The translations under genes were made by a program, and so were the position numbers. The notes under the pieces were generated by a model, which was not told where the DNA came from, made no database searches, and saw nothing but the letters and a program-made list of their open reading frames with translations. DNA of 64,000 nt from a virus (taxonomy: Duplodnaviria; Caudoviricetes), in the IMG/VR virus record IMGVR_UViG_3300023174_000162, positions 2,041 to 66,040 of that record. The stretch is one strand, 5' to 3'. How positions within the stretch are numbered: position 1 is the first letter of the stretch; the number at the start of each line of letters is the position of its first letter. Below are positions 139 to 55,127 of this stretch, piece by piece.

Positions 139-2474
139 TATGCAGATACCGCGATAACTCTAATATCATCTACTTCAGGAACTACTACTTTGCTGTCAGC
201 TAGGAATACAATCTTGATCGACATTGAATCATATCCATCAACTGGAGCCATTGAAGATGTAAAATATCTAACCACATTATCATTTAAGATGTTATTATAC
301 GCTACATTTTTAAACTTCAACTTATCAATCTTTAATGACGATCCAACTAATCCATTATTTGCAATAGTGTCTTGAATTACAACTGCAGTAGAATTTACTG
401 ATGCAACAGGAGATACAATATAGTTAGTCGTACTAAACAATGGATTATATACCTTAATCAGATCATTTGCAGCAAGATTTGCTGATAGATCATTATTAGT
501 TAATATTACGTTATTTGATATAGCTGTAGTAGCAGTTGCATTGCATGTAAATCTAGTAGCTGGGTAACTAGGGAAGCCATATTCAAATTCCTTAATATCA
601 TCCTTGTTTCCAGTAGCACTTACTTGATTTTGTCCAGAAACTAACTCAAGAGGAGACCAACTCTTAGTACTAAATGGTTCGCCATCCTTTGAGTTACCAA
701 TCTTAGCATAAACTAAAACATTTGTATTTGCTGGCTTATAAGCATTAATATAAACACGAATATCTTCAGCAAACAAATTATTTGCTAGATTAATTTTCTT
801 AGTAATATGCTTTGACTGTAAAGAACCTCGGCCAGTTTCACTTTCGGTATTTGCAGAGGTTGCATCAATTTTTTGTGTAAACGTAAACACATTTATTTTA
901 TTATCATATAGATATGGTGCAAAAAATGTAGGATTATTGCCAATATCTGCAATGTTAATACCTAAAGTTAATTTTATCATAGATGACTTATCAGCATTAT
1001 AAAAATTAGTTGAAGAAGCCACTTCATTTGATCTTGAATATATTTGTGCTACATAAGGAACGTTGATTGTATCAACATTGTCAGCATTATTAAATGTTTG
1101 AATATACCCAGAGGAATTAGATATAGCATATGACAGACTTGAATATCCTAATGATACAGACGATACATTAATATCAGGATCCATTATCTCAACGCTTAAA
1201 TTATCGATTGTCACGATATCTGCATTAGCGCCACTAATCTCTCCTTTCAAAGGAGTATTAATTACTGGAGTTAAACTAGCACTTGAACCAGTGCTTGTTG
1301 TGATAGTAACTACCGAATGTGTTGAATTTGGGAATTCACCGCCTGCTGAAGTCAATCTAATAGAAACAACATTTCCTGTAGCATTAGTTACTAATACTCC
1401 TGTAGCATTTACCGAACCGTTTGAAACTCTTACTGTGTCAGTATTTGAATAGCTAGCACCAGGATTAGATATTGTAAAATACTGTACCGAATTTTTAAAG
1501 AATCTAAGTGTGCTATTTGCTGCAGTAGAGCCTCTTAAATATAAAGTTTTTGCAATATAGTCCCGTTGGTATACCTCTCCAACAACAGTTGTGTTATGCC
1601 AGCAAGTATTTCCAAATGGGACTTCTGATGCAAGTCGTATACGTGTGTCACTAATAACAGTATCTACTGTAGCTATTGTTTGTTGATTATTATTAGAAGT
1701 ATTTGTTAAAATAATATTGTCACCTTCACCATATTGAGTTGTAAATGTAGTGTTAGTTCCAACTATAATATTATTTGATGTTTGAGTTTTAACTGTTCCA
1801 GCTTGACTAAAGAATGTATTAACAGTAGAGTTTGCTACTCTACCAAAATTTGGAAATACTAGTTCTCCACCTTTAAATTTAGCATCAGATGACATATTGG
1901 TGCATGTAAAGAACTCGTAGTCATCATTACATATATCAACCGTTACAGTATTTGCTGTAAATTTGGCAATTCTTAAATTAAATTTAATGTCACGATCAGA
2001 TAATGGTTTTAATGTATCATCAGCGCCATTCCTATAAAGTTTTCCATCGCCTTCACCAGAAGTTCCAGAATATTTACTAGTAGTATTTAAAACGATTTCA
2101 TTTTGTACTGCAGTAAATAATTCAAATGCGTTATCATCAAATACAACAACTATTCCATAGTATGTTCCAGTTTTAAGAATAATTGGTGACTCAAATGTAA
2201 ACTTTGTTGGGACTGTTGCATCTGCAACCAATGAAATAGCTCTCCATTCCGCACGTGCTGTAATATTTTGTAATTGGACATCTGGATTTGGGTTTTCACC
2301 AACAAACGGACAAATATGAACTGTTACACCAGGATTATTAATACCAGACGAATTATTTGTAGCACTAGGTTTATTTTTAAAATAAAGATCTACACTAGTA
2401 ACAAATATATTTGGGGCATTGTTAACCCTTGATGGTGTTATAATAAATGATTGAATATAGTTAAATGGTTTCAT
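138..2474 (-). CDS. Virion structural protein, similar to the C-terminal part of VrlC-like proteins
   Basis: Long T/N/S-rich ORF; motifs FVTSVDLYF, KHITKKINL, EFEYG, VPEVDDIRVIA; likely start MKPFNY at 2474. Confidence 0.7.
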   Translation of the reverse strand: MKPFNYIQSFIITPSRVNNAPNIFVTSVDLYFKNKPSATNNSSGINNPGVTVHICPFVGENPNPDVQLQNITARAEWRAISLVADATVPTKFTFESPIILKTGTYYGIVVVFDDNAFELFTAVQNEIVLNTTSKYSGTSGEGDGKLYRNGADDTLKPLSDRDIKFNLRIAKFTANTVTVDICNDDYEFFTCTNMSSDAKFKGGELVFPNFGRVANSTVNTFFSQAGTVKTQTSNNIIVGTNTTFTTQYGEGDNIILTNTSNNNQQTIATVDTVISDTRIRLASEVPFGNTCWHNTTVVGEVYQRDYIAKTLYLRGSTAANSTLRFFKNSVQYFTISNPGASYSNTDTVRVSNGSVNATGVLVTNATGNVVSIRLTSAGGEFPNSTHSVVTITTSTGSSASLTPVINTPLKGEISGANADIVTIDNLSVEIMDPDINVSSVSLGYSSLSYAISNSSGYIQTFNNADNVDTINVPYVAQIYSRSNEVASSTNFYNADKSSMIKLTLGINIADIGNNPTFFAPYLYDNKINVFTFTQKIDATSANTESETGRGSLQSKHITKKINLANNLFAEDIRVYINAYKPANTNVLVYAKIGNSKDGEPFSTKSWSPLELVSGQNQVSATGNKDDIKEFEYGFPSYPATRFTCNATATTAISNNVILTNNDLSANLAANDLIKVYNPLFSTTNYIVSPVASVNSTAVVIQDTIANNGLVGSSLKIDKLKFKNVAYNNILNDNVVRYFTSSMAPVDGYDSMSIKIVFLADSKVVVPEVDDIRVIAVSA

Positions 2475-31008: not shown

Positions 31009-31094
31009 AATTTTCTCCTAGTTATTAATAAAGCTACTACATATAGATCAGTAGTTGAAGATGCTATAGCAAAAGTTCAACATGAGACCATTAA

Positions 31095-31400
31095 TTCGGA
31101 CCGACTGATTGGGTGATAAGGACAGTCGGTGAAAACCTCATCTAGAGCTTAAGCTGCTAGAGCGTAATCGCTATCGTTTGCGTTTACTTGTTTTGCTTGA
31201 TTTACGGTCATCGCCTACCGTGTTGCCTTCTCTACTATCTCACCCTGTCGAAACCTGGTCATCCCCATCAGAAGTACACAATCCCCGCTAGAGCCCTCAG
31301 AGGTTTCTTTCATCTAGGACAACTATGCACTTCTGGTGGAGATGGAGGGAATCGAACCCTCGTCCAGAATGCCTTCGCTTTGAAGGAATTACAACAATTC
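31095..31400 (-). ncRNA. ssrA: Circularly permuted (two-piece) tmRNA; outer boundaries approximate
   Basis: Acceptor piece ends GGTTCGATTCCCTCCATCTCCACCA (31334); 67-nt intervening segment; coding piece starts GGGGATGACCAGGTTTCGAC (31266); tag ANDSDYALAA* at 31181-31149. Confidence 0.92.
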
Positions 31401-31408
31401 TTTTTATC

Positions 31409-31510
31409 TTACTTATAAGTTGAACAGTAAAATAATACAATACAAACACCGACCATTAATGCTCCAATCAAACCTACAAAATATCCAGCAAAAAAACATG
31501 AAGCAGACAT
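31409..31510 (-). CDS. Small hydrophobic peptide (33 aa)
   Basis: MSASCFFAGYFVGLIGALMVGVCIVLFYCSTYK*, coupled to the upstream stop. Confidence 0.45.
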   Translation of the reverse strand: MSASCFFAGYFVGLIGALMVGVCIVLFYCSTYK

Positions 31511-50352: not shown

Positions 50353-50573
50353 AATATTTTTCCTAACACTTTATCAAAGAGTTCATCAAGCTCGGATTGG
50401 TAATCATTTCCAATCCTACGTTTTTCATAGATAGTTCGAATAAATGCTTTAAATTCAGTATCTTCGAACTCATCTTCCACTATAGAATATCCTCGACCCT
50501 CTAGCTCATTAATCAGATCATCTGTGTCGAAGTCATCTAAGTCTACGTCTACATCTACTGTAATATATGTCAT
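50349..50573 (-). CDS. Hypothetical acidic protein
   Basis: VDVDLDDFDTDDLINELEGRG. Confidence 0.6.
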   Translation of the reverse strand: MTYITVDVDVDLDDFDTDDLINELEGRGYSIVEDEFEDTEFKAFIRTIYEKRRIGNDYQSELDELFDKVLGKIL

Positions 50574-50755
50574 GCTTCCACCTCAGGAACATCTTTCCAC
50601 TCTGACCATTCCAGATATGGATTAAATCGACCTACATTAACATTAGTATGACCTTCTATTTTTACAGTTGGATCATACTTAACACGATATTGAAGAGTTC
50701 TCTTTCCACTAATACCGACAAAATCTTTCTGCACTACCCATCTCAACTCAAACAT
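50570..50755 (-). CDS. Hypothetical protein
   Basis: ELRW..LQYR..WSEWKDVP. Confidence 0.6.
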   Translation of the reverse strand: MFELRWVVQKDFVGISGKRTLQYRVKYDPTVKIEGHTNVNVGRFNPYLEWSEWKDVPEVEA

Positions 50756-51035
50756 CACCAATTCTCCCTTGTTTGACGATCTCACGAGTTTTCATTCCAC
50801 GATTGACATACATTAATGCAGCTTCTTCTGTATCGAAATGCATAATGGTTTTATAGGGATGACCCATCGCTTCATGATGTTCTTTCACGGCTGGTTCCCA
50901 GAAAGTTCCTCTTTCAACTCCCATCATCTCAAATTGCACCTCATAATGTACTTCATTTTTGATGTTGGTTTCTTTGATGATTCTATAAGAACCGGTGTGT
51001 CGAGTGACATCGAAGGCTAAATCAAATTTATTCAT
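50748..51035 (-). CDS. Hypothetical protein
   Basis: ORF directly after the tRNA cluster. Confidence 0.55.
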   Translation of the reverse strand: MNKFDLAFDVTRHTGSYRIIKETNIKNEVHYEVQFEMMGVERGTFWEPAVKEHHEAMGHPYKTIMHFDTEEAALMYVNRGMKTREIVKQGRIGDV

Positions 51036-51053
51036 AGGCGTATCAATATAAAG

Positions 51054-51128
51054 TGGAGTACGGGACAGGAATCAAACCTGCATGGGACAGTTTTGCAGAC
51101 TGCCGCCTGATCACTCGGCCACCCGTAC
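51054..51128 (-). tRNA. tRNA-Cys(GCA)
   Basis: Loop CTGCAAA, U73, CCA. Confidence 0.88.
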
Positions 51129-51133
51129 GTAGG

Positions 51134-51209
51134 TGGAAGCGGGTGCTGGATTCGAACCAACGATCTTCAGTTTATGAGACTGATGGGATGACCACTTCCC
51201 CAACCCGCA
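51134..51209 (-). tRNA. tRNA-Met(CAT), initiator-like
   Basis: Loop CTCATAA; 1:72 mismatch, but lacks the three G-C anticodon-stem pairs. Confidence 0.8.
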
Positions 51210-51217
51210 ATAAAACA

Positions 51218-51294
51218 TGGTGCCCAGGGCGAGACTCGAACTCGCAAAATTCGGCTTCTAAGACCGACACGTATACCAATTCCATCACCTGGGC
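51218..51294 (-). tRNA. tRNA-Leu(TAG), short variable arm
   Basis: Loop CTTAGAA, CCA. Confidence 0.88.
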
Positions 51295-51301
51295 AAAACT
51301 T

Positions 51302-51376
51302 TGGTGGAAGTAGAGAGATTTGAACTCCCGACCAACTCCGTATGAAGGAGCTGCACTACCACTGTGCTATACTTCC
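51302..51376 (-). tRNA. tRNA(CAT): Ile2 or elongator Met
   Basis: Loop TTCATAC, CCA. Confidence 0.85.
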
Positions 51377-51377
51377 G

Positions 51378-51452
51378 TGGTACCCTGTCGTGGGAACGAT
51401 CCACGGACCCTCACCTTATCAAGATGATGCTCTACCACTGAGCTAACAGGGC
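51378..51452 (-). tRNA. tRNA-Ile(GAT)
   Basis: Loop TTGATAA, CCA; T-loop ATCGTTC. Confidence 0.85.
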
Positions 51453-51453
51453 A

Positions 51454-51699
51454 TTATTCAACTTGTTTTTTATCTACACACGTATCACCAACAAAAACAT
51501 AAACATCAGAATCGATTCTTAATTGCTCGAATACCTGATTGTTTACACAGATATAAGGATCCTTATGATTTTCCATGTAATAAAAAACACCATAACCAAT
51601 ACCTCCCAATACCATAAGGATAGGGATATACTTGAGATACTTAACGATCTCAGGCAATGCAGAAAGAATCTGCGGTAGATTTTTTAATAGCTCTTTCAT
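51454..51699 (-). CDS. Small membrane protein inside tRNA cluster
   Basis: Start MKELLK; one TM helix. Confidence 0.6.
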   Translation of the reverse strand: MKELLKNLPQILSALPEIVKYLKYIPILMVLGGIGYGVFYYMENHKDPYICVNNQVFEQLRIDSDVYVFVGDTCVDKKQVE

Positions 51700-51711
51700 A
51701 CTACTATATAT

Positions 51712-51787
51712 TGGTGCAGACTGATGGAATCGAACCACCTTCATCGGCTCTTCAGGCCGCTGCTATGACCACATCAGCTAAGTCTGC
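51712..51787 (-). tRNA. tRNA-Phe(GAA)
   Basis: Loop CTGAAGA, CCA. Confidence 0.88.
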
Positions 51788-51846
51788 AAGATGTTGACAA
51801 TTTATTTTACTCTACGCCGTCAACAAAGGCGAGTCCTCACACGCGA

Positions 51847-52233
51847 TTAAATACACCACTCCTTCAGTTTATCCATAGTTAGAGTCTTTCTAACTTCATA
51901 TGAAGGATGATACTTCTTTACCATCTCCAACACTCTAGGAAGAACTTTGCAGATGAATTCATAATGCTTATCATCTCTACGACTAGCTTCTACCTTGAGA
52001 TAAGGAGTACCAGTGATATATGCTCTTGCTAAGAACGTTGCTCTGTTCTCTCTACCTACTACAAATTTACGATGATCAGAAAGTGAACAGAGTTTACGTT
52101 GCACTTCATACAAACTCTTCGATTCATTTCTTTCTAACCAATCAATCTGCTTCTTTAACTTTGCTTCTTCAAAACGGATTACTTTTGCTTCTAACGTCAG
52201 GTGCTTCGATTTGATTTTTAATTCGATACTCAT
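51847..52233 (-). CDS. Conserved phage basic hypothetical protein with hairpin-sequestered RBS
   Basis: ELKIKSKHL..EAKVIRFEE, HRKFVVGRENRATFLARAY; SD AAGGAG at 52245-52240. Confidence 0.85.
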   Translation of the reverse strand: MSIELKIKSKHLTLEAKVIRFEEAKLKKQIDWLERNESKSLYEVQRKLCSLSDHRKFVVGRENRATFLARAYITGTPYLKVEASRRDDKHYEFICKVLPRVLEMVKKYHPSYEVRKTLTMDKLKEWCI

Positions 52234-52239
52234 ATTGTT

Positions 52240-52279
52240 CTCCTTGTTTAAAAATTAGACATACAATTTAAACAAGAAG
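52240..52279 (-). promoter_or_regulatory. SD-sequestering hairpin
   Basis: CTTCTTGTTTAAA pairs with TTTAAACAAGGAG (13 bp, one G-U). Confidence 0.8.
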
Positions 52280-52281
52280 TT

Positions 52282-52317
52282 TTATGGAGGTCGAATGATC
52301 TAGCCAATATACCTCAT
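52282..52317 (-). CDS. Leader peptide with in-frame amber: MRYIG(UAG)IIRPP*
   Basis: AAGGAG-7nt-ATG AGG TAT ATT GGC TAG ATC ATT CGA CCT CCA TAA. Confidence 0.7.
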
Positions 52318-52341
52318 TACTAGTCTCCTTTTCAAAGTTTA

Positions 52342-52416
52342 TGGTGACTCTAGTAGGAATTGAACCTACATTAAACATTTTAGAGATGCTCGCATTAACC
52401 ATTATGCTATAGAGTC
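52342..52416 (-). tRNA. Amber suppressor tRNA (anticodon CTA)
   Basis: Acceptor GACTCTA/TAGAGTC, anticodon arm AGCAT-CTCTAAA-ATGTT, T arm GTAGG-TTCAATT-CCTAC, ACCA. Confidence 0.88.
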
Positions 52417-52433
52417 ATAATTATATATCTGAA

Positions 52434-52507
52434 GGGGTGTCCAACGAGTATCGACCTCGTACCTACTCTTTCACAGAGAGTAATGCTTCCACTACACCAT
52501 GGACACC
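52434..52507 (-). tRNA. tRNA-His(GTG)
   Basis: Loop CTGTGAA, G-1 encoded, CCA not fully encoded. Confidence 0.85.
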
Positions 52508-52509
52508 AT

Positions 52510-52584
52510 TGGCAGGGATGCTAGGATTCGAACCTAGTCTAGTTGAGTCAAAGTCAACGGTGCTCGCCGATACACTACATCCCA
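52510..52584 (-). tRNA. tRNA-Gln(TTG)
   Basis: Loop CTTTGAC, CCA. Confidence 0.88.
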
Positions 52585-52591
52585 ATAAATC

Positions 52592-52667
52592 TGGTGGAGA
52601 TGACAGGACTCGAACCCGCTACCTACTGCTTGCAAAGCAGCCGCTCTCCCAGCTGAGCTACATCCCC
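52592..52667 (-). tRNA. tRNA-Ala(TGC)
   Basis: G3-U70, loop TTTGCAA, CCA. Confidence 0.95.
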
Positions 52668-52760
52668 ATATTGAAACACACTGCGGGAATCGAACCCATC
52701 GGCCGGAATATAGGCCTACAGCCACCCCTCGTACCCTTGGGATTCAATGTGTTTCAATAT
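52668..52760 (-). ncRNA. Stem-closed RNA cassette A with tRNA-like T arm
   Basis: TATTGAAACACA...TGTGTTTCAATA enclosing GGGTTCGATTCCC. Confidence 0.6.
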
Positions 52761-52834
52761 GGCCGGTCCTGAAGGAATCGAACCTCCACTTAGTGGTCCG
52801 TAGCCACTCGTAATATCCATTTTACTAAAGACCG
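52760..52834 (-). tRNA. tRNA-Arg(ACG)
   Basis: Loop CTACGGA, CCA. Confidence 0.88.
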
Positions 52835-53001
52835 ATAATGAATTATAGCCGGTGTAGACACATCAAGGCATCACCCTATCCCGCTACTCCGTTTACTAAG
52901 AAGGCTTTTCGCTACTCAATGATTGATGATCATCTTTCACTACTTTGTTTTTAAAGGCCTCTAGTTGTCCATCCCACTAGACTCTGCTCCTACTATAAAT
53001 G

Positions 53002-53094
53002 TGGTGGGTGTCCACGGAGTCGAACCGCGAATGTTTACCACGAGGGACCTGATTTACAGTCAGGTGATGCACACGCCTTAGCATCAAGACACCC
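53002..53094 (-). tRNA. tRNA-Tyr(GTA)
   Basis: Loop CTGTAAA, long variable arm, CCA. Confidence 0.88.
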
Positions 53095-53157
53095 ATATAG
53101 AAGCACACCAGCCTGGCCAGCTTTCGTATCGAATACATTAACGATGTGCTTTTATAT
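53095..53157 (-). ncRNA. Stem-closed RNA cassette B
   Basis: TATAAAAGCACA...TGTGCTTCTATA. Confidence 0.5.
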
Positions 53158-53233
53158 GGTAGGTGCGGTGAGATTCGAACTCACGACCAATAGATTAAAA
53201 GTCTACTGCTCTAACCATCTGAGCTACGCACCT
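53157..53233 (-). tRNA. tRNA-Lys(TTT)
   Basis: Loop CTTTTAA, CCA. Confidence 0.93.
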
Positions 53234-53348
53234 TCTGATTTTCTGCTTTTCGAAGAGCTTTATTACTCTTTCTATGTGTACCCGCTTTTCTAAATAACGC
53301 CATCTTCACGAACGGATTACGTGGAGAGGCGATGCGTTTTCGTTTCAT
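53211..53348 (-). CDS. 45-aa very basic peptide whose stop lies inside tRNA-Lys
   Basis: RBS AGGAG; MKRKRIASPRNPFVKMALFRKAGTHRKSNKALRKAENQKVRSSDG*; missing from the ORF track. Confidence 0.7.
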   Translation of the reverse strand: MKRKRIASPRNPFVKMALFRKAGTHRKSNKALRKAENQKVRSSDG

Positions 53349-53369
53349 ACTCATCTCCTATAAAAAATC

Positions 53370-53444
53370 TGGCGGTCTCAAGGGGTAACGATCCCCTTCT
53401 TCATGCGTGACAGGCATGTGTGCGTCCATGAACACTTTGAGACC
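53370..53444 (-). tRNA. tRNA-Asp(GTC)
   Basis: Loop CTGTCAC, GCCA; T-loop ATCGTTA. Confidence 0.85.
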
Positions 53445-53450
53445 AGAATT

Positions 53451-53526
53451 TGGCTGCCAAGGTAGGGATCGAACCTACGACCAATTGATTAACAGTCAAC
53501 TGCTACTACCACTGAGCTACTTGGCA
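53451..53526 (-). tRNA. tRNA-Asn(GTT)
   Basis: Loop CTGTTAA, GCCA. Confidence 0.9.
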
Positions 53527-53656
53527 ATATTAGTTTTGCAGTCTGCACTATTTGCTATGTTTCAACGGATTAGCCTGCAGGACTTCGTTTACCGTCTATA
53601 TTCATAGTTACTCAGGCATGATCAAGCCCATGGCTTACAAACTGCAAAATTAATAT
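53527..53656 (-). ncRNA. Putative ~130-nt structured RNA
   Basis: Closing stem ATATTAATTTTGCAGT / ACTGCAAAACTAATAT. Confidence 0.5.
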
Positions 53657-53874
53657 GCTTAGGCTACGTGTTTTCCAATCATCGCCCCTAAGCTGAGTTG
53701 TTACCCTGTCCGAACACTAATCGACGCCTTGTCACGTAGTGTCCACGCTGCTATGTTGTCTGAGAAACCGGAGACGCCACTTGCGTAGTGTCTATATCTC
53801 GCTAACGGTGCCATAGCCACCGGGACAGTTATCGTCGCCACACGCTACTTTCAGGAAAGTAGTAACCGGAAACC
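53657..53874 (-). ncRNA. Putative ~220-nt multi-hairpin RNA
   Basis: GC-rich; stems CTACTTT/AAAGTAG, CTGTCC/GGACAG, CGGTG/CACCG, GCTTAGG/CCTAAGC. Confidence 0.55.
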
Positions 53875-53947
53875 ATATTGAAACACACTACAAAACGCTG
53901 TCACGCTCAGAGTTCGTCCATTAGCGAAGCAATGTGCTTCAATATGG
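53873..53947 (-). ncRNA. Stem-closed RNA cassette C
   Basis: CCATATTGAAGCACA...TGTGTTTCAATATGG. Confidence 0.55.
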
Positions 53948-54048
53948 CAACAATGTTGACTACCCTTCTAGCCCACGGTCAAGTTCTGCTAGTCGCTCTA
54001 GGGTCACCAGTAGGTCCTGTTGCAACAGGTTACCGATCATTGTTTACC
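53945..54048 (-). ncRNA. Putative CCA-terminated non-tRNA RNA
   Basis: AACAATG/CATTGTT-GCCA with internal hairpins. Confidence 0.5.
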
Positions 54049-54203
54049 ATATTAAAACACACTAATGAATCAGTCTGACGCAGCCGTACGCTTGGCAAAT
54101 CGTTTCCAATTTGTTTCTCGCTTTTCTAGGTACTCTGTATGTTCAGAATTCCGCAGTCCTCAATATAATTGCTTATAAGGGCAACTAATGTGTTTTAATA
54201 TGG
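54047..54203 (-). ncRNA. Stem-closed RNA cassette D
   Basis: CCATATTAAAACACA...TGTGTTTTAATATGG. Confidence 0.55.
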
Positions 54204-54275
54204 TACACCGTAGGAGAATCGAACTCCTCTTACTGCCGTGAAAGGGCAATGTCCTAACCGATAGACGAACGGTGC
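54201..54275 (-). tRNA. tRNA-Glu(TTC)
   Basis: Loop CTTTCAC, CCA. Confidence 0.92.
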
Positions 54276-54326
54276 ATTAAACTTTTTAAATTGTAAAAGA
54301 GCACTACTTAATCAATCAATAGAGTC

Positions 54327-54388
54327 ATTATACACTGAACTCTATAATTTGTACACTGTTTTTTTCAGACTGTGTCAAAAAAGATACA
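54327..54388 (-). promoter_or_regulatory. Early promoter cassette driving the tRNA/ncRNA array
   Basis: TATAAT, GTGTAC, variant box TGTGTCAAAAAAGATACA. Confidence 0.75.
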
Positions 54389-54412
54389 GTAACAAACAAA
54401 CAACTATGATTC

Positions 54413-54565
54413 TTATTTATACATAGAAGGGAAGTTGACAACATTTCCATTCATAAGATTACCAACAAATTCAGTGGTTTCATCTTTAATTTTTTTATCA
54501 TGCTCATTCATCGCTGCTTGAGTCATTAGTTGGAATACGGTCCAAGTCCACACATTGTTATTCAT
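54413..54565 (-). CDS. Hypothetical protein
   Basis: Likely start MNNNVW. Confidence 0.45.
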   Translation of the reverse strand: MNNNVWTWTVFQLMTQAAMNEHDKKIKDETTEFVGNLMNGNVVNFPSMYK

Positions 54566-54776
54566 AGCTTTTCTTATCTCCAAATTTTTCGTTTTCTTCG
54601 TAACCTGCCATATACTCTGCAACTTCTTCTTCAGTCAAATTCGTTGCTCGTTCACCGTACCCAGTTCCACGAGGATCGGGATACCAGTGCGGATCAGGTG
54701 AACGATTGTAATAGCTATCTGCACTACCACGATCGAACAAACCGCCATGACGACTGCGATCAAATTGGTCTTTCAT
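54558..54776 (-). CDS. Conserved phage hypothetical protein
   Basis: RHGGLFDRGSADSYY.R..DPH. Confidence 0.75.
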   Translation of the reverse strand: MKDQFDRSRHGGLFDRGSADSYYNRSPDPHWYPDPRGTGYGERATNLTEEEVAEYMAGYEENEKFGDKKSYE

Positions 54777-54973
54777 GCTTCCTCCAAATCTTGATAGTTC
54801 ATACAAGCTTCGTTAAATGCATCTAATGCTTCGTAGTACTCCGTCTCGTAGAACTTCAGACTTTTCTTGTAGATACCCGCACCAATTTCAAGTTCGTACG
54901 TGTATTCATTAAGTCTCCAAAGTACCACACGTTCACCACGACCATTCCTACCATCATTAATATGTTGCAGCAT
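54773..54973 (-). CDS. Hypothetical protein
   Basis: Start probably MLQHIND. Confidence 0.55.
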   Translation of the reverse strand: MLQHINDGRNGRGERVVLWRLNEYTYELEIGAGIYKKSLKFYETEYYEALDAFNEACMNYQDLEEA

Positions 54974-55127
54974 TTTCAGTTTCCTCAATCATCTTAGCAC
55001 ACATGTTCATAGTGATTTGTGCTACTGTAAGAGCTATTGCTTTTTCTTGACCAGTAAACCGCTCACAAAACTCCATCAACTCTTCAGGGTTTTTAGGGGT
55101 AAAAAACAATCCAGAAGTTGGTATCAT
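54957..55127 (-). CDS. Hypothetical protein (56 aa)
   Basis: MIPTSGLFFTPKNPEELMEFCERF...; RBS AGGAG; missing from the ORF track. Confidence 0.6.
   Translation of the reverse strand: MIPTSGLFFTPKNPEELMEFCERFTGQEKAIALTVAQITMNMCAKMIEETENAATY

Follow-up and report, generated by a model that had tools for sequence, protein, structure and literature searches.

A small basic peptide gene of tRNA-rich phages that closes inside tRNA-Lys(UUU): a candidate stop-less gene under trans-translation control

The stretch of viral DNA considered here (the window: 64 kb out of the 66,040-bp IMG/VR virus record IMGVR_UViG_3300023174_000162, CheckV completeness ~40%) carries, within a phage tRNA array, a small gene for a strongly basic peptide whose reading frame finds its stop codon only inside the adjoining tRNA-Lys(UUU) gene. 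The gene is real and under purifying selection, and it belongs to a large unnamed peptide family. RNase P cuts the 5′ end of every tRNA, and the cut predicted at this junction would take the stop codon away from the coding part. In our judgement the best explanation, with a probability of roughly 0.6, is a stop-less peptide gene whose message is truncated by RNase P and whose back-up product would be controlled by trans-translation. On the sequence comparisons described below, both the conservation of the open reading frame (ORF) and that of its junction with the tRNA appear to be beyond chance.

The peptide family and its junction with tRNA-Lys(UUU)

The ORF (Table 1) is read here from the second of its ATG codons, at 53348. 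The ORF listing also offers a first-ATG version of 47 residues (53354..53211, minus strand), and we take the 45-residue reading as the right one because homologues begin MKRKR. Codons 1–38 (53348..53235) precede tRNA-Lys, with Q38 (53237..53235) as the final complete codon, codon 39 straddles the 5′ end of the tRNA, and codons 40–45 are tRNA-Lys sequence. The initial annotation had described a basic 45-residue ORF with a good ribosome-binding site that runs 23 nt into tRNA-Lys and stops at a TAG in the D arm, and every one of these details is confirmed by the sequence, ARAGORN and Rfam.

Relatives are numerous. An IMG/VR scan confirmed 194 viral stretches with the family, and an exhaustive phmmer search over 1.84 billion representatives returned 192 cluster representatives at E ≤ 1e-3, with zero at 1e-10 or better; a word-indexed search gave six candidates, five of them family proteins. 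One phmmer match, P0129 (594 residues, nine matched stretches), is a translated tandem repeat (..KKALWRKLGLHRINPKGQ..) and was set aside as not a family member. Three cultured phages have relatives detectable by tblastn: Acidovorax phage ACP17 (E 4e-8; one phage under two accessions), Variovorax phage V45v66 and Synechococcus phage BUCT-ZZ01. The ACP17 homologue (1501..1653 of locus L001) is unannotated; where the similarity starts there is no ATG, GTG or TTG; a CTG there shares bases with the stop codon of the preceding gene, and no GTG appears until 15 codons in. The core motif of the family is RNPFV..(A)LFRKAGxH(R/K)KSNKAxR(K/R), and in 54 short members N11, G23, H25 and R33 are invariant; the window protein has all four and matches the family profile. 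An AlphaFold2 model based on the family alignment (mean predicted local distance difference test score 82) places a short hydrophobic helix at residues 12–18, an extended basic linker after it and a charged C-terminal helix at residues 29–44.

The family is absent by profile search from Pfam and NCBIfam (54 members), PHROG and the PDB, and no Pfam family is common to the 54 scanned members at E ≤ 1. Foldseek found no match for the peptide model in the PDB, the ESM Atlas and other libraries gave nothing or clusters labelled ‘hypothetical protein’ only, and neither the family nor any phage peptide gene that closes in tRNA-Lys came up in the literature searched. Such absence from the family libraries, together with the shortness of the ORF (45 codons) and the missing annotation in ACP17, might be read as the mark of an accidental ORF between tRNAs, or of a conserved RNA element instead of a protein. 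The pattern of change in the family speaks strongly for a protein: across 62 distinct 90-nt cores the median dN/dS is 0.115 (1060 pairs), and the codon-position entropy of 0.57/0.38/1.20 places the variation mostly at third positions. A Shine-Dalgarno-like motif lies within 18 nt of the start in all 81 phage loci considered (the best 80 loci of the 194 IMG/VR stretches plus the window), the start being ATG in 80 and GTG in one, and protein-level matches span phages and bacteria with quite different DNA. Taken with these data, a chance ORF or a bare RNA element is improbable in the extreme.

In 68 of the 81 loci the stop is within tRNA-Lys(UUU) (52 of 61 when counted by distinct proteins); in one (L080) it lies within tRNA-Arg(UCU), and 12 ORFs close ahead of the following tRNA detected. 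In all 68 loci with tRNA-Lys(UUU) as the next tRNA there is no earlier stop, so that homologues normally stopping before the tRNA, which the initial annotation had named as the pattern that would contradict it, are found in 0 of these 68. The same junction, with a 21-nt overlap, is present in the cultured cyanophage BUCT-ZZ01. The overlap with tRNA-Lys amounts to 8, 10, 13, 16, 21, 23, 26 or 30 nt, with all three frames represented, and the number of complete codons ahead of the tRNA varies from 37 to 45 (38 in the window). Eleven kinds of tRNA stand upstream, and of the 66 loci with an upstream tRNA on the same strand, 46 have a leader of 15–26 nt. Many of the 60–120-residue cluster representatives have tails that, read by eye, resemble translated tRNA (e.g. 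..AFNVKVQSS.., ..AQLVEQ). The tails past the predicted cut are unconserved, or are mere tRNA or hairpin sequence, which fits a functional product ending there.

One might suppose instead that the overlap reflects tight packing, an ordinary small basic protein (for example, nucleic-acid- or ribosome-associated) being made from unprocessed transcripts and ending at the tRNA-internal stop. The short distance from the tRNA start to the stop (8–30 nt in the 68 phage loci) and the ordinary stops of many relatives fit such an arrangement. It does not lead one to expect, however, that the overlap would be kept in every one of the three frames and at a divergence as deep as dS about 1, or that in some relatives the frame would cross the whole tRNA and continue beyond it. 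Nor does it lead one to expect the absence of gained stops: an in-frame stop occurs in 0 of 47 distinct junction DNAs vs 26.5% of shuffles, and a single substitution would turn 125 of the 237 junction codons into a stop. The junctions are related sequences and so yield no clean probability, and these statistics point to selection against a stop. Packing also leaves unexplained the stop-removing hairpins and terminators, described next, in members that have no tRNA junction, and we regard it as unlikely on the whole.

Hairpins, terminators and ordinary stops among the relatives

Thirteen of the 81 loci have a stop outside tRNA-Lys, namely the 12 that stop before the next tRNA and L080, and nine of them were folded. 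A long hairpin spans the 3′ end of the ORF in seven of the nine; in L056 and L061, whose tails are long, Rfam detected no tRNA hidden there. A second IMG/VR scan, with one non-tRNA-junction ORF as the query, gave 52 loci, 12 of them on contigs already counted and four without an ORF by the motif search; the hairpin type accounts for 41 and tRNA-Lys junctions for seven. Within the 41, the stop lies in the 3′ arm of the hairpin in 24, in the loop in six, after the hairpin in 11 and before it in none. The initial annotation had proposed looking in homologues for an overlapping tRNA or hairpin, and both are thus found, the tRNA in the 68 loci ending within tRNA-Lys(UUU) and the hairpin over the 3′ part of the gene in this sister subfamily.

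The next tRNA beside the hairpin subfamily is Cys, Met, Thr, His, Arg or Gly. An uninterrupted stem of at least 16 bp is present in 23 of 32 distinct hairpin segments vs 0 of 960 dinucleotide shuffles, and the median folding-energy z of the 32 segments against such shuffles is −5.15; uninterrupted stems and dinucleotide shuffles were used in place of a control that allowed bulges and used mononucleotide shuffles, which did not discriminate the hairpins. The stem sequences vary by sub-lineage, and the tails that they encode are unrelated and mostly hydrophobic (LYPIMCINLGYCL, YFGIFCYNH, CHLIHICGV..). The stems have no T-run behind them. Long stems of this sort are a typical substrate of RNase III.

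Bacterial copies show a third arrangement. A pattern-limited scan (one genome per species) found 18 loci, mostly in Betaproteobacteria, and of 401 Burkholderiales genomes searched by profile, 69 carry the family, with one match each save for one genome with a weak second match (E 4.8e-4). Among the best 30 Burkholderiales chromosomal loci, a GC-rich hairpin followed by a T-run lies before or at the stop in nine, a terminator lies behind the gene's own stop in five, and in the remaining 16 the gene's own stop stands without any such signal; a further two are borderline. The terminator site of L186 was also found by an independent scan tool. Two other copies, L099 and L103, have a terminator-like hairpin and T-run too, the last T of the run in L099 starting the TAA stop, and the different terminator sequences number at least five with L099 included. 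In L097 and L102 the stop is embraced by a long hairpin. The tRNA-Lys junction itself recurs in three tRNA arrays of Burkholderia/Achromobacter assemblies, where the frame reads through the entire tRNA. No conserved gene neighbourhood was seen around the bacterial copies. In L102, from the metagenome-assembled genome of a gammaproteobacterial symbiont, the peptide gene stands directly behind an RtcB RNA ligase gene (271..1473, plus strand; Pfam E 1e-127), a single case.

The constancy of the tRNA partner deserves separate thought. PrrC and similar anticodon nucleases, as well as the PARIS system, target tRNA-Lys, and the peptide might act with or for tRNA-Lys, either as a counter to host nucleases of tRNA-Lys(UUU) that comes along with a substitute for the cut tRNA, or as a lysine-rich leader that tunes maturation of the tRNA-Lys downstream. 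This is the only reading that explains the near-constant partner, which is tRNA-Lys(UUU) in 68 of the 69 loci ending in a tRNA while the upstream tRNA is variable; the recurrence of the pairing in a cyanophage and in bacterial tRNA arrays, and the position of one bacterial copy next to rtcB, would also be in its favour. Yet the conservation covers the amino-acid sequence and not lysine codons alone, the family thrives with no tRNA nearby (ACP17-like phages, the hairpin subfamily with its various next tRNAs, and the 69 Burkholderiales genomes), and inheritance of one ancestral ORF–tRNA-Lys module could account for the specificity. We therefore consider a tRNA-Lys-directed role a rather improbable one, more so than packing. 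The presence in one family of three different stop-loss devices, a tRNA, a hairpin and a terminator, as far as the sequences can tell, supports a stop-less logic like that of arfA.

Setting in the tRNA array and the phage tmRNA

ARAGORN places 19 tRNA genes and one transfer-messenger RNA (tmRNA) in the window, all on the minus strand. The leader and the ORF together make up a spacer of ~136 nt with a tRNA on either side. A simple scan of 52900..53700 found no promoter-like sites and no terminators on the strand of the ORF, and the ORF therefore sits within the tRNA transcription unit. The sole near-identical DNA in cultured phages for this same interval is 69 nt (91.5%) within tRNA-Asp, in an unannotated region of Ralstonia phage RSP15; no near-identical DNA match for the peptide ORF itself was found among cultured phages.

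Table 1. Positions of the peptide gene, its flanking tRNAs and the phage tmRNA in the window
Feature	Position	Strand	Details and basis
Peptide ORF, coding part	53214..53348	−	45 codons, MKRKRIASPRNPFVKMALFRKAGTHRKSNKALRKAENQKVRSSDG; ORF listing, family conservation, dN/dS
TAG stop of the peptide ORF	53213..53211	−	tRNA-Lys positions 21–23, D-loop/D-stem boundary; 23-nt overlap
Shine-Dalgarno AGGAG	53359..53355	−	6-nt spacer to the ATG at 53348
Leader	53349..53369	−	21 nt, from the 3′ CCA of tRNA-Asp to the start codon
tRNA-Lys(UUU)	53233..53157	−	ARAGORN; Rfam tRNA 75.1 bits, top tRNA score within 50500..55000
Predicted RNase P cut	between 53234 and 53233	−	would remove the stop codon of the ORF; from the known action of RNase P
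tRNA-Asp(GUC)	53370..53444	−	ARAGORN; upstream limit of the mini-message
Phage tmRNA	31058..31447	−	ARAGORN 31058..31426, tag ANDSDYALAA; Rfam beta_tmRNA RF01850 at 31083..31447

That this phage carries its own tmRNA, as had been claimed from the sequence alone, holds by both ARAGORN and Rfam, the RF01850 score being 161.3 bits vs a gathering score of 84. The betaproteobacterial type of this tmRNA and the Burkholderiales relatives of the peptide suggest a betaproteobacterial host. We searched 48 of 83 phage records with RF01850 (45 of 80 viral loci, mostly contigs of ~20 kb or more, and three cultured phages). A match at E ≤ 1e-12 was present in 22 records, 16 of them above the cut-off, and all 22 fall within the 39 records of tRNA-Lys type; the nine other records (seven of hairpin or other types, ACP17 and V45v66) had none. 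Records rated at least 90% complete had a match in five of six. RF01850 was used instead of RF00023, which gave 0 of 48 records above cut-off and many tRNA cross-matches. SmpB and RF-1 domains were not detected in the 66-kb record, itself ~40% complete. The phage tmRNA is likely the tagging partner of stop-less products.

Other features of the array are noted here in their own right. A tRNA with a CUA anticodon, hence of the amber-suppressor type, lies at 52342..52416 (minus strand; ‘tRNA-Pyl’ according to ARAGORN, Rfam tRNA 68.5 bits), and the other 80 loci have no such tRNA less than 1.5 kb from the peptide gene. TAG, which is also the stop of the peptide ORF within tRNA-Lys, closes just three of the 43 window ORFs of at least 150 residues. 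Between tRNA-Asn and tRNA-Glu there is a gap of ~670 nt (53527..54200) with no ORF longer than 66 residues and no Rfam match at E ≤ 1. A weak tRNA-Sec-like Rfam match (52675..52753, minus strand; 24.5 bits, E 0.13) sits in the 92-nt gap between tRNA-Ala and tRNA-Arg, and may be a decayed or odd tRNA.

Proposed mechanism and relation to known rescue factors

Our consideration of the mechanism proceeds by analogy with arfA and brfA. Each transcript that gives tRNA-Lys would also give an upstream fragment ending at 53234, 136 nt long, with a Shine-Dalgarno sequence, 38 codons and no stop. Ribosomes would run to the 3′ end of this stop-less message. As long as trans-translation, served by the host and phage tmRNAs, has spare capacity, the peptide would be tagged and degraded; once it has none left, the 38-residue peptide might escape tagging and accumulate. 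The gene encodes a strongly basic peptide of ~38–45 residues; in this phage and in most of its phage relatives, conservation of the coding part ceases a few codons short of tRNA-Lys(UUU), and only a stop that chances to lie within the tRNA closes the frame. A protein wired in this manner through a stop-less message is, by analogy, most plausibly a back-up ribosome-rescue factor. The K+R content of the family peptides (12–15 per ~40 residues) and the charged C-terminal helix of the model would fit a binder of the ribosomal mRNA channel.

To our knowledge, ArfA, BrfA and ArfT, all tiny and unrelated in sequence, have so far been discovered by genetic screens only. The message of Escherichia coli arfA is described as truncated by a hairpin that stops transcription or is cut by RNase III, with trans-translation repressing the product, and Bacillus subtilis brfA (YqkK, 72 codons) as having a rho-independent terminator ahead of its stop, the active product coming from the stop-less message (PMC8012679). 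The same 2021 review states that more back-up rescue factors may exist and would be hard to find through similarity. The likeness of the present family to ArfA (E. coli yhdL) consists in a small basic protein and in the anatomy of the gene, which arfA shares with the hairpin subfamily and with those bacterial copies that have a terminator. The two differ in that there is no sequence or profile similarity, in that the main truncating device here is the 5′ end of a tRNA, presumably through RNase P, and in that many members have an ordinary stop. With brfA, the nine of 30 Burkholderiales copies and L099 and L103 share the terminator before the stop; BrfA, however, comes from Bacillus, an unrelated lineage, and is set apart from the family by its description and the NCBIfam scan.

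The kinship with ArfA that the initial annotation had suggested probing by profile or structure did not emerge from Pfam, hhalign, a PDB profile search or Foldseek, nor did one with ArfB. Aligned with hhalign, the family profile gave a probability of 0.1% against E. coli ArfA, 0.08% against a 14-sequence ArfA profile and 0.3% against E. coli ArfB (YaeJ), where four columns aligned (KALR/KAMR). The KGKGS stretch of ArfA is absent from the family consensus ..FRKAGxHRKSNKAxRK.., and its KH motif is not conserved, the residue before the invariant H being variable, with K or R only in some members. NCBIfam rescue-factor families matched none of the 54 members. PF03889 is present in 0 of the 18 family-bearing bacterial genomes, an uninformative figure against a base rate of 3 in 300 genomes of the same class. 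A complex prediction for the Saezia copy (L103 ORF, residues 1–59) with its own RF2 (L157) gave scores of 0.00 and 0.00 and counts neither for nor against binding.

ArfT of Francisella (~40 residues) has a basic C-terminal KKGGSTNKK and a charged helix (10.1101/465609, PMC6514570), and charged helices, often repeated, are described for the wider ArfT family (PMC6514570). Size, a charged helix and a K-S/T-N-K stretch are shared with our peptides, a resemblance of a few residues only; in contrast, the arfT message is not truncated, the gene having neither a terminator nor an RNase III site ahead of its stop as far as the account of it in 10.1101/465609 goes. ArfT is thus set apart by description, and by the lack of a shared Pfam family in the 54 members. 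By the sequence and profile comparisons, then, the family appears to belong to none of ArfA, ArfB and ArfT, and its likeness to ArfA and BrfA to be one of gene design only. The ArfA-like logic of the initial annotation is accordingly supported as a stop-less design, by comparison with the junction in 68 of 68 loci, the hairpins and the terminators, and is not supported as kinship.

Two further precedents concern the junction itself. Hudson, Lau and Williams (2014; PMC4131195) discussed overlaps of coding sequences (CDSs) with tRNA or tmRNA genes, including Carsonella smpB-ssrA, as sources of non-stop messages. There as here, a tRNA-like gene lying across the 3′ end of the coding sequence would, on maturing, take the stop codon from the message. 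Their survey was of Pfam-positive bacterial CDSs only and is given as 379 same-strand overlaps, ~1 in 15000, from few evolutionary events (PMC4131195); it names no family built around such an overlap, and phage tRNA arrays lie outside its range. Our family also resembles a second precedent in that its message is delimited by tRNAs on both sides. In mitochondria such tRNA punctuation frees messages flanked by tRNAs, some of them with no complete stop, when the tRNAs are processed; it is organelle-wide for all messages, whereas here a single small gene in a phage tRNA array is concerned.

Several observations weigh against a stop-less gene controlled by trans-translation and have to be set beside those that favour it. 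Ordinary stops are found in 21 of the 30 Burkholderiales copies and in a Thiomonas group. The copies of ACP17 and V45v66 lie in ordinary operons with their own stops. In the phages, L051, L052 and L079 show no truncation device, L051 and L079 having no long hairpin on folding and L052 being placed with them from a tail identical to that of L051. Stop-less expression thus appears, from the sequences, to be recurrent and not universal in the family. Several Burkholderiales terminators are alike (GGGCGGGA...TCCCGCCC), so that independent origins are fewer than loci. Truncation alone would allow any tRNA as the partner, and a tRNA other than tRNA-Lys(UUU) is seen only in L080. The ArfA profile PF03889 has no match in the 66-kb record (E ≤ 10) or in the 54 members (E ≤ 1). 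The association with tmRNA is confounded by phage lineage and by the size of contig fragments. A ribosome closely coupled to RNA polymerase could reach the tRNA-internal stop before RNase P acts. Lastly, each of 17 runs has at most 8% of the words, and the RNA contigs over the region, from four RNA runs, contain tRNA parts only and nothing of 53251..53358, which speaks neither way.

Irrespective of function, a large unnamed family displays, in three mechanically different ways, the one hallmark of back-up rescue factors visible at the DNA level, the shedding of a gene's own stop. A more specific scenario, which we offer tentatively and hold to be somewhat less probable than not, is that a family common in Burkholderiales has been paired in uncultured tRNA-rich phages with a phage tmRNA as a two-tier rescue kit, RNase P at tRNA-Lys making the message stop-less. 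If the family does rescue ribosomes, it would fill a gap in Burkholderiales, ArfA being found in three of 300 genomes sampled from the class; phages would carry a rescue kit of tmRNA and back-up factor beside their tRNAs; and tRNA processing by RNase P would join RNase III and terminators among the means of wiring a gene to the state of trans-translation. Should the rescue-kit scenario prove true, a small basic ORF that loses its stop to a tRNA, a hairpin or a terminator would be a general signature for rescue factors that similarity searches do not see. If the function is another, this would still be a widespread phage peptide under strong selection and with an unusual design of expression.
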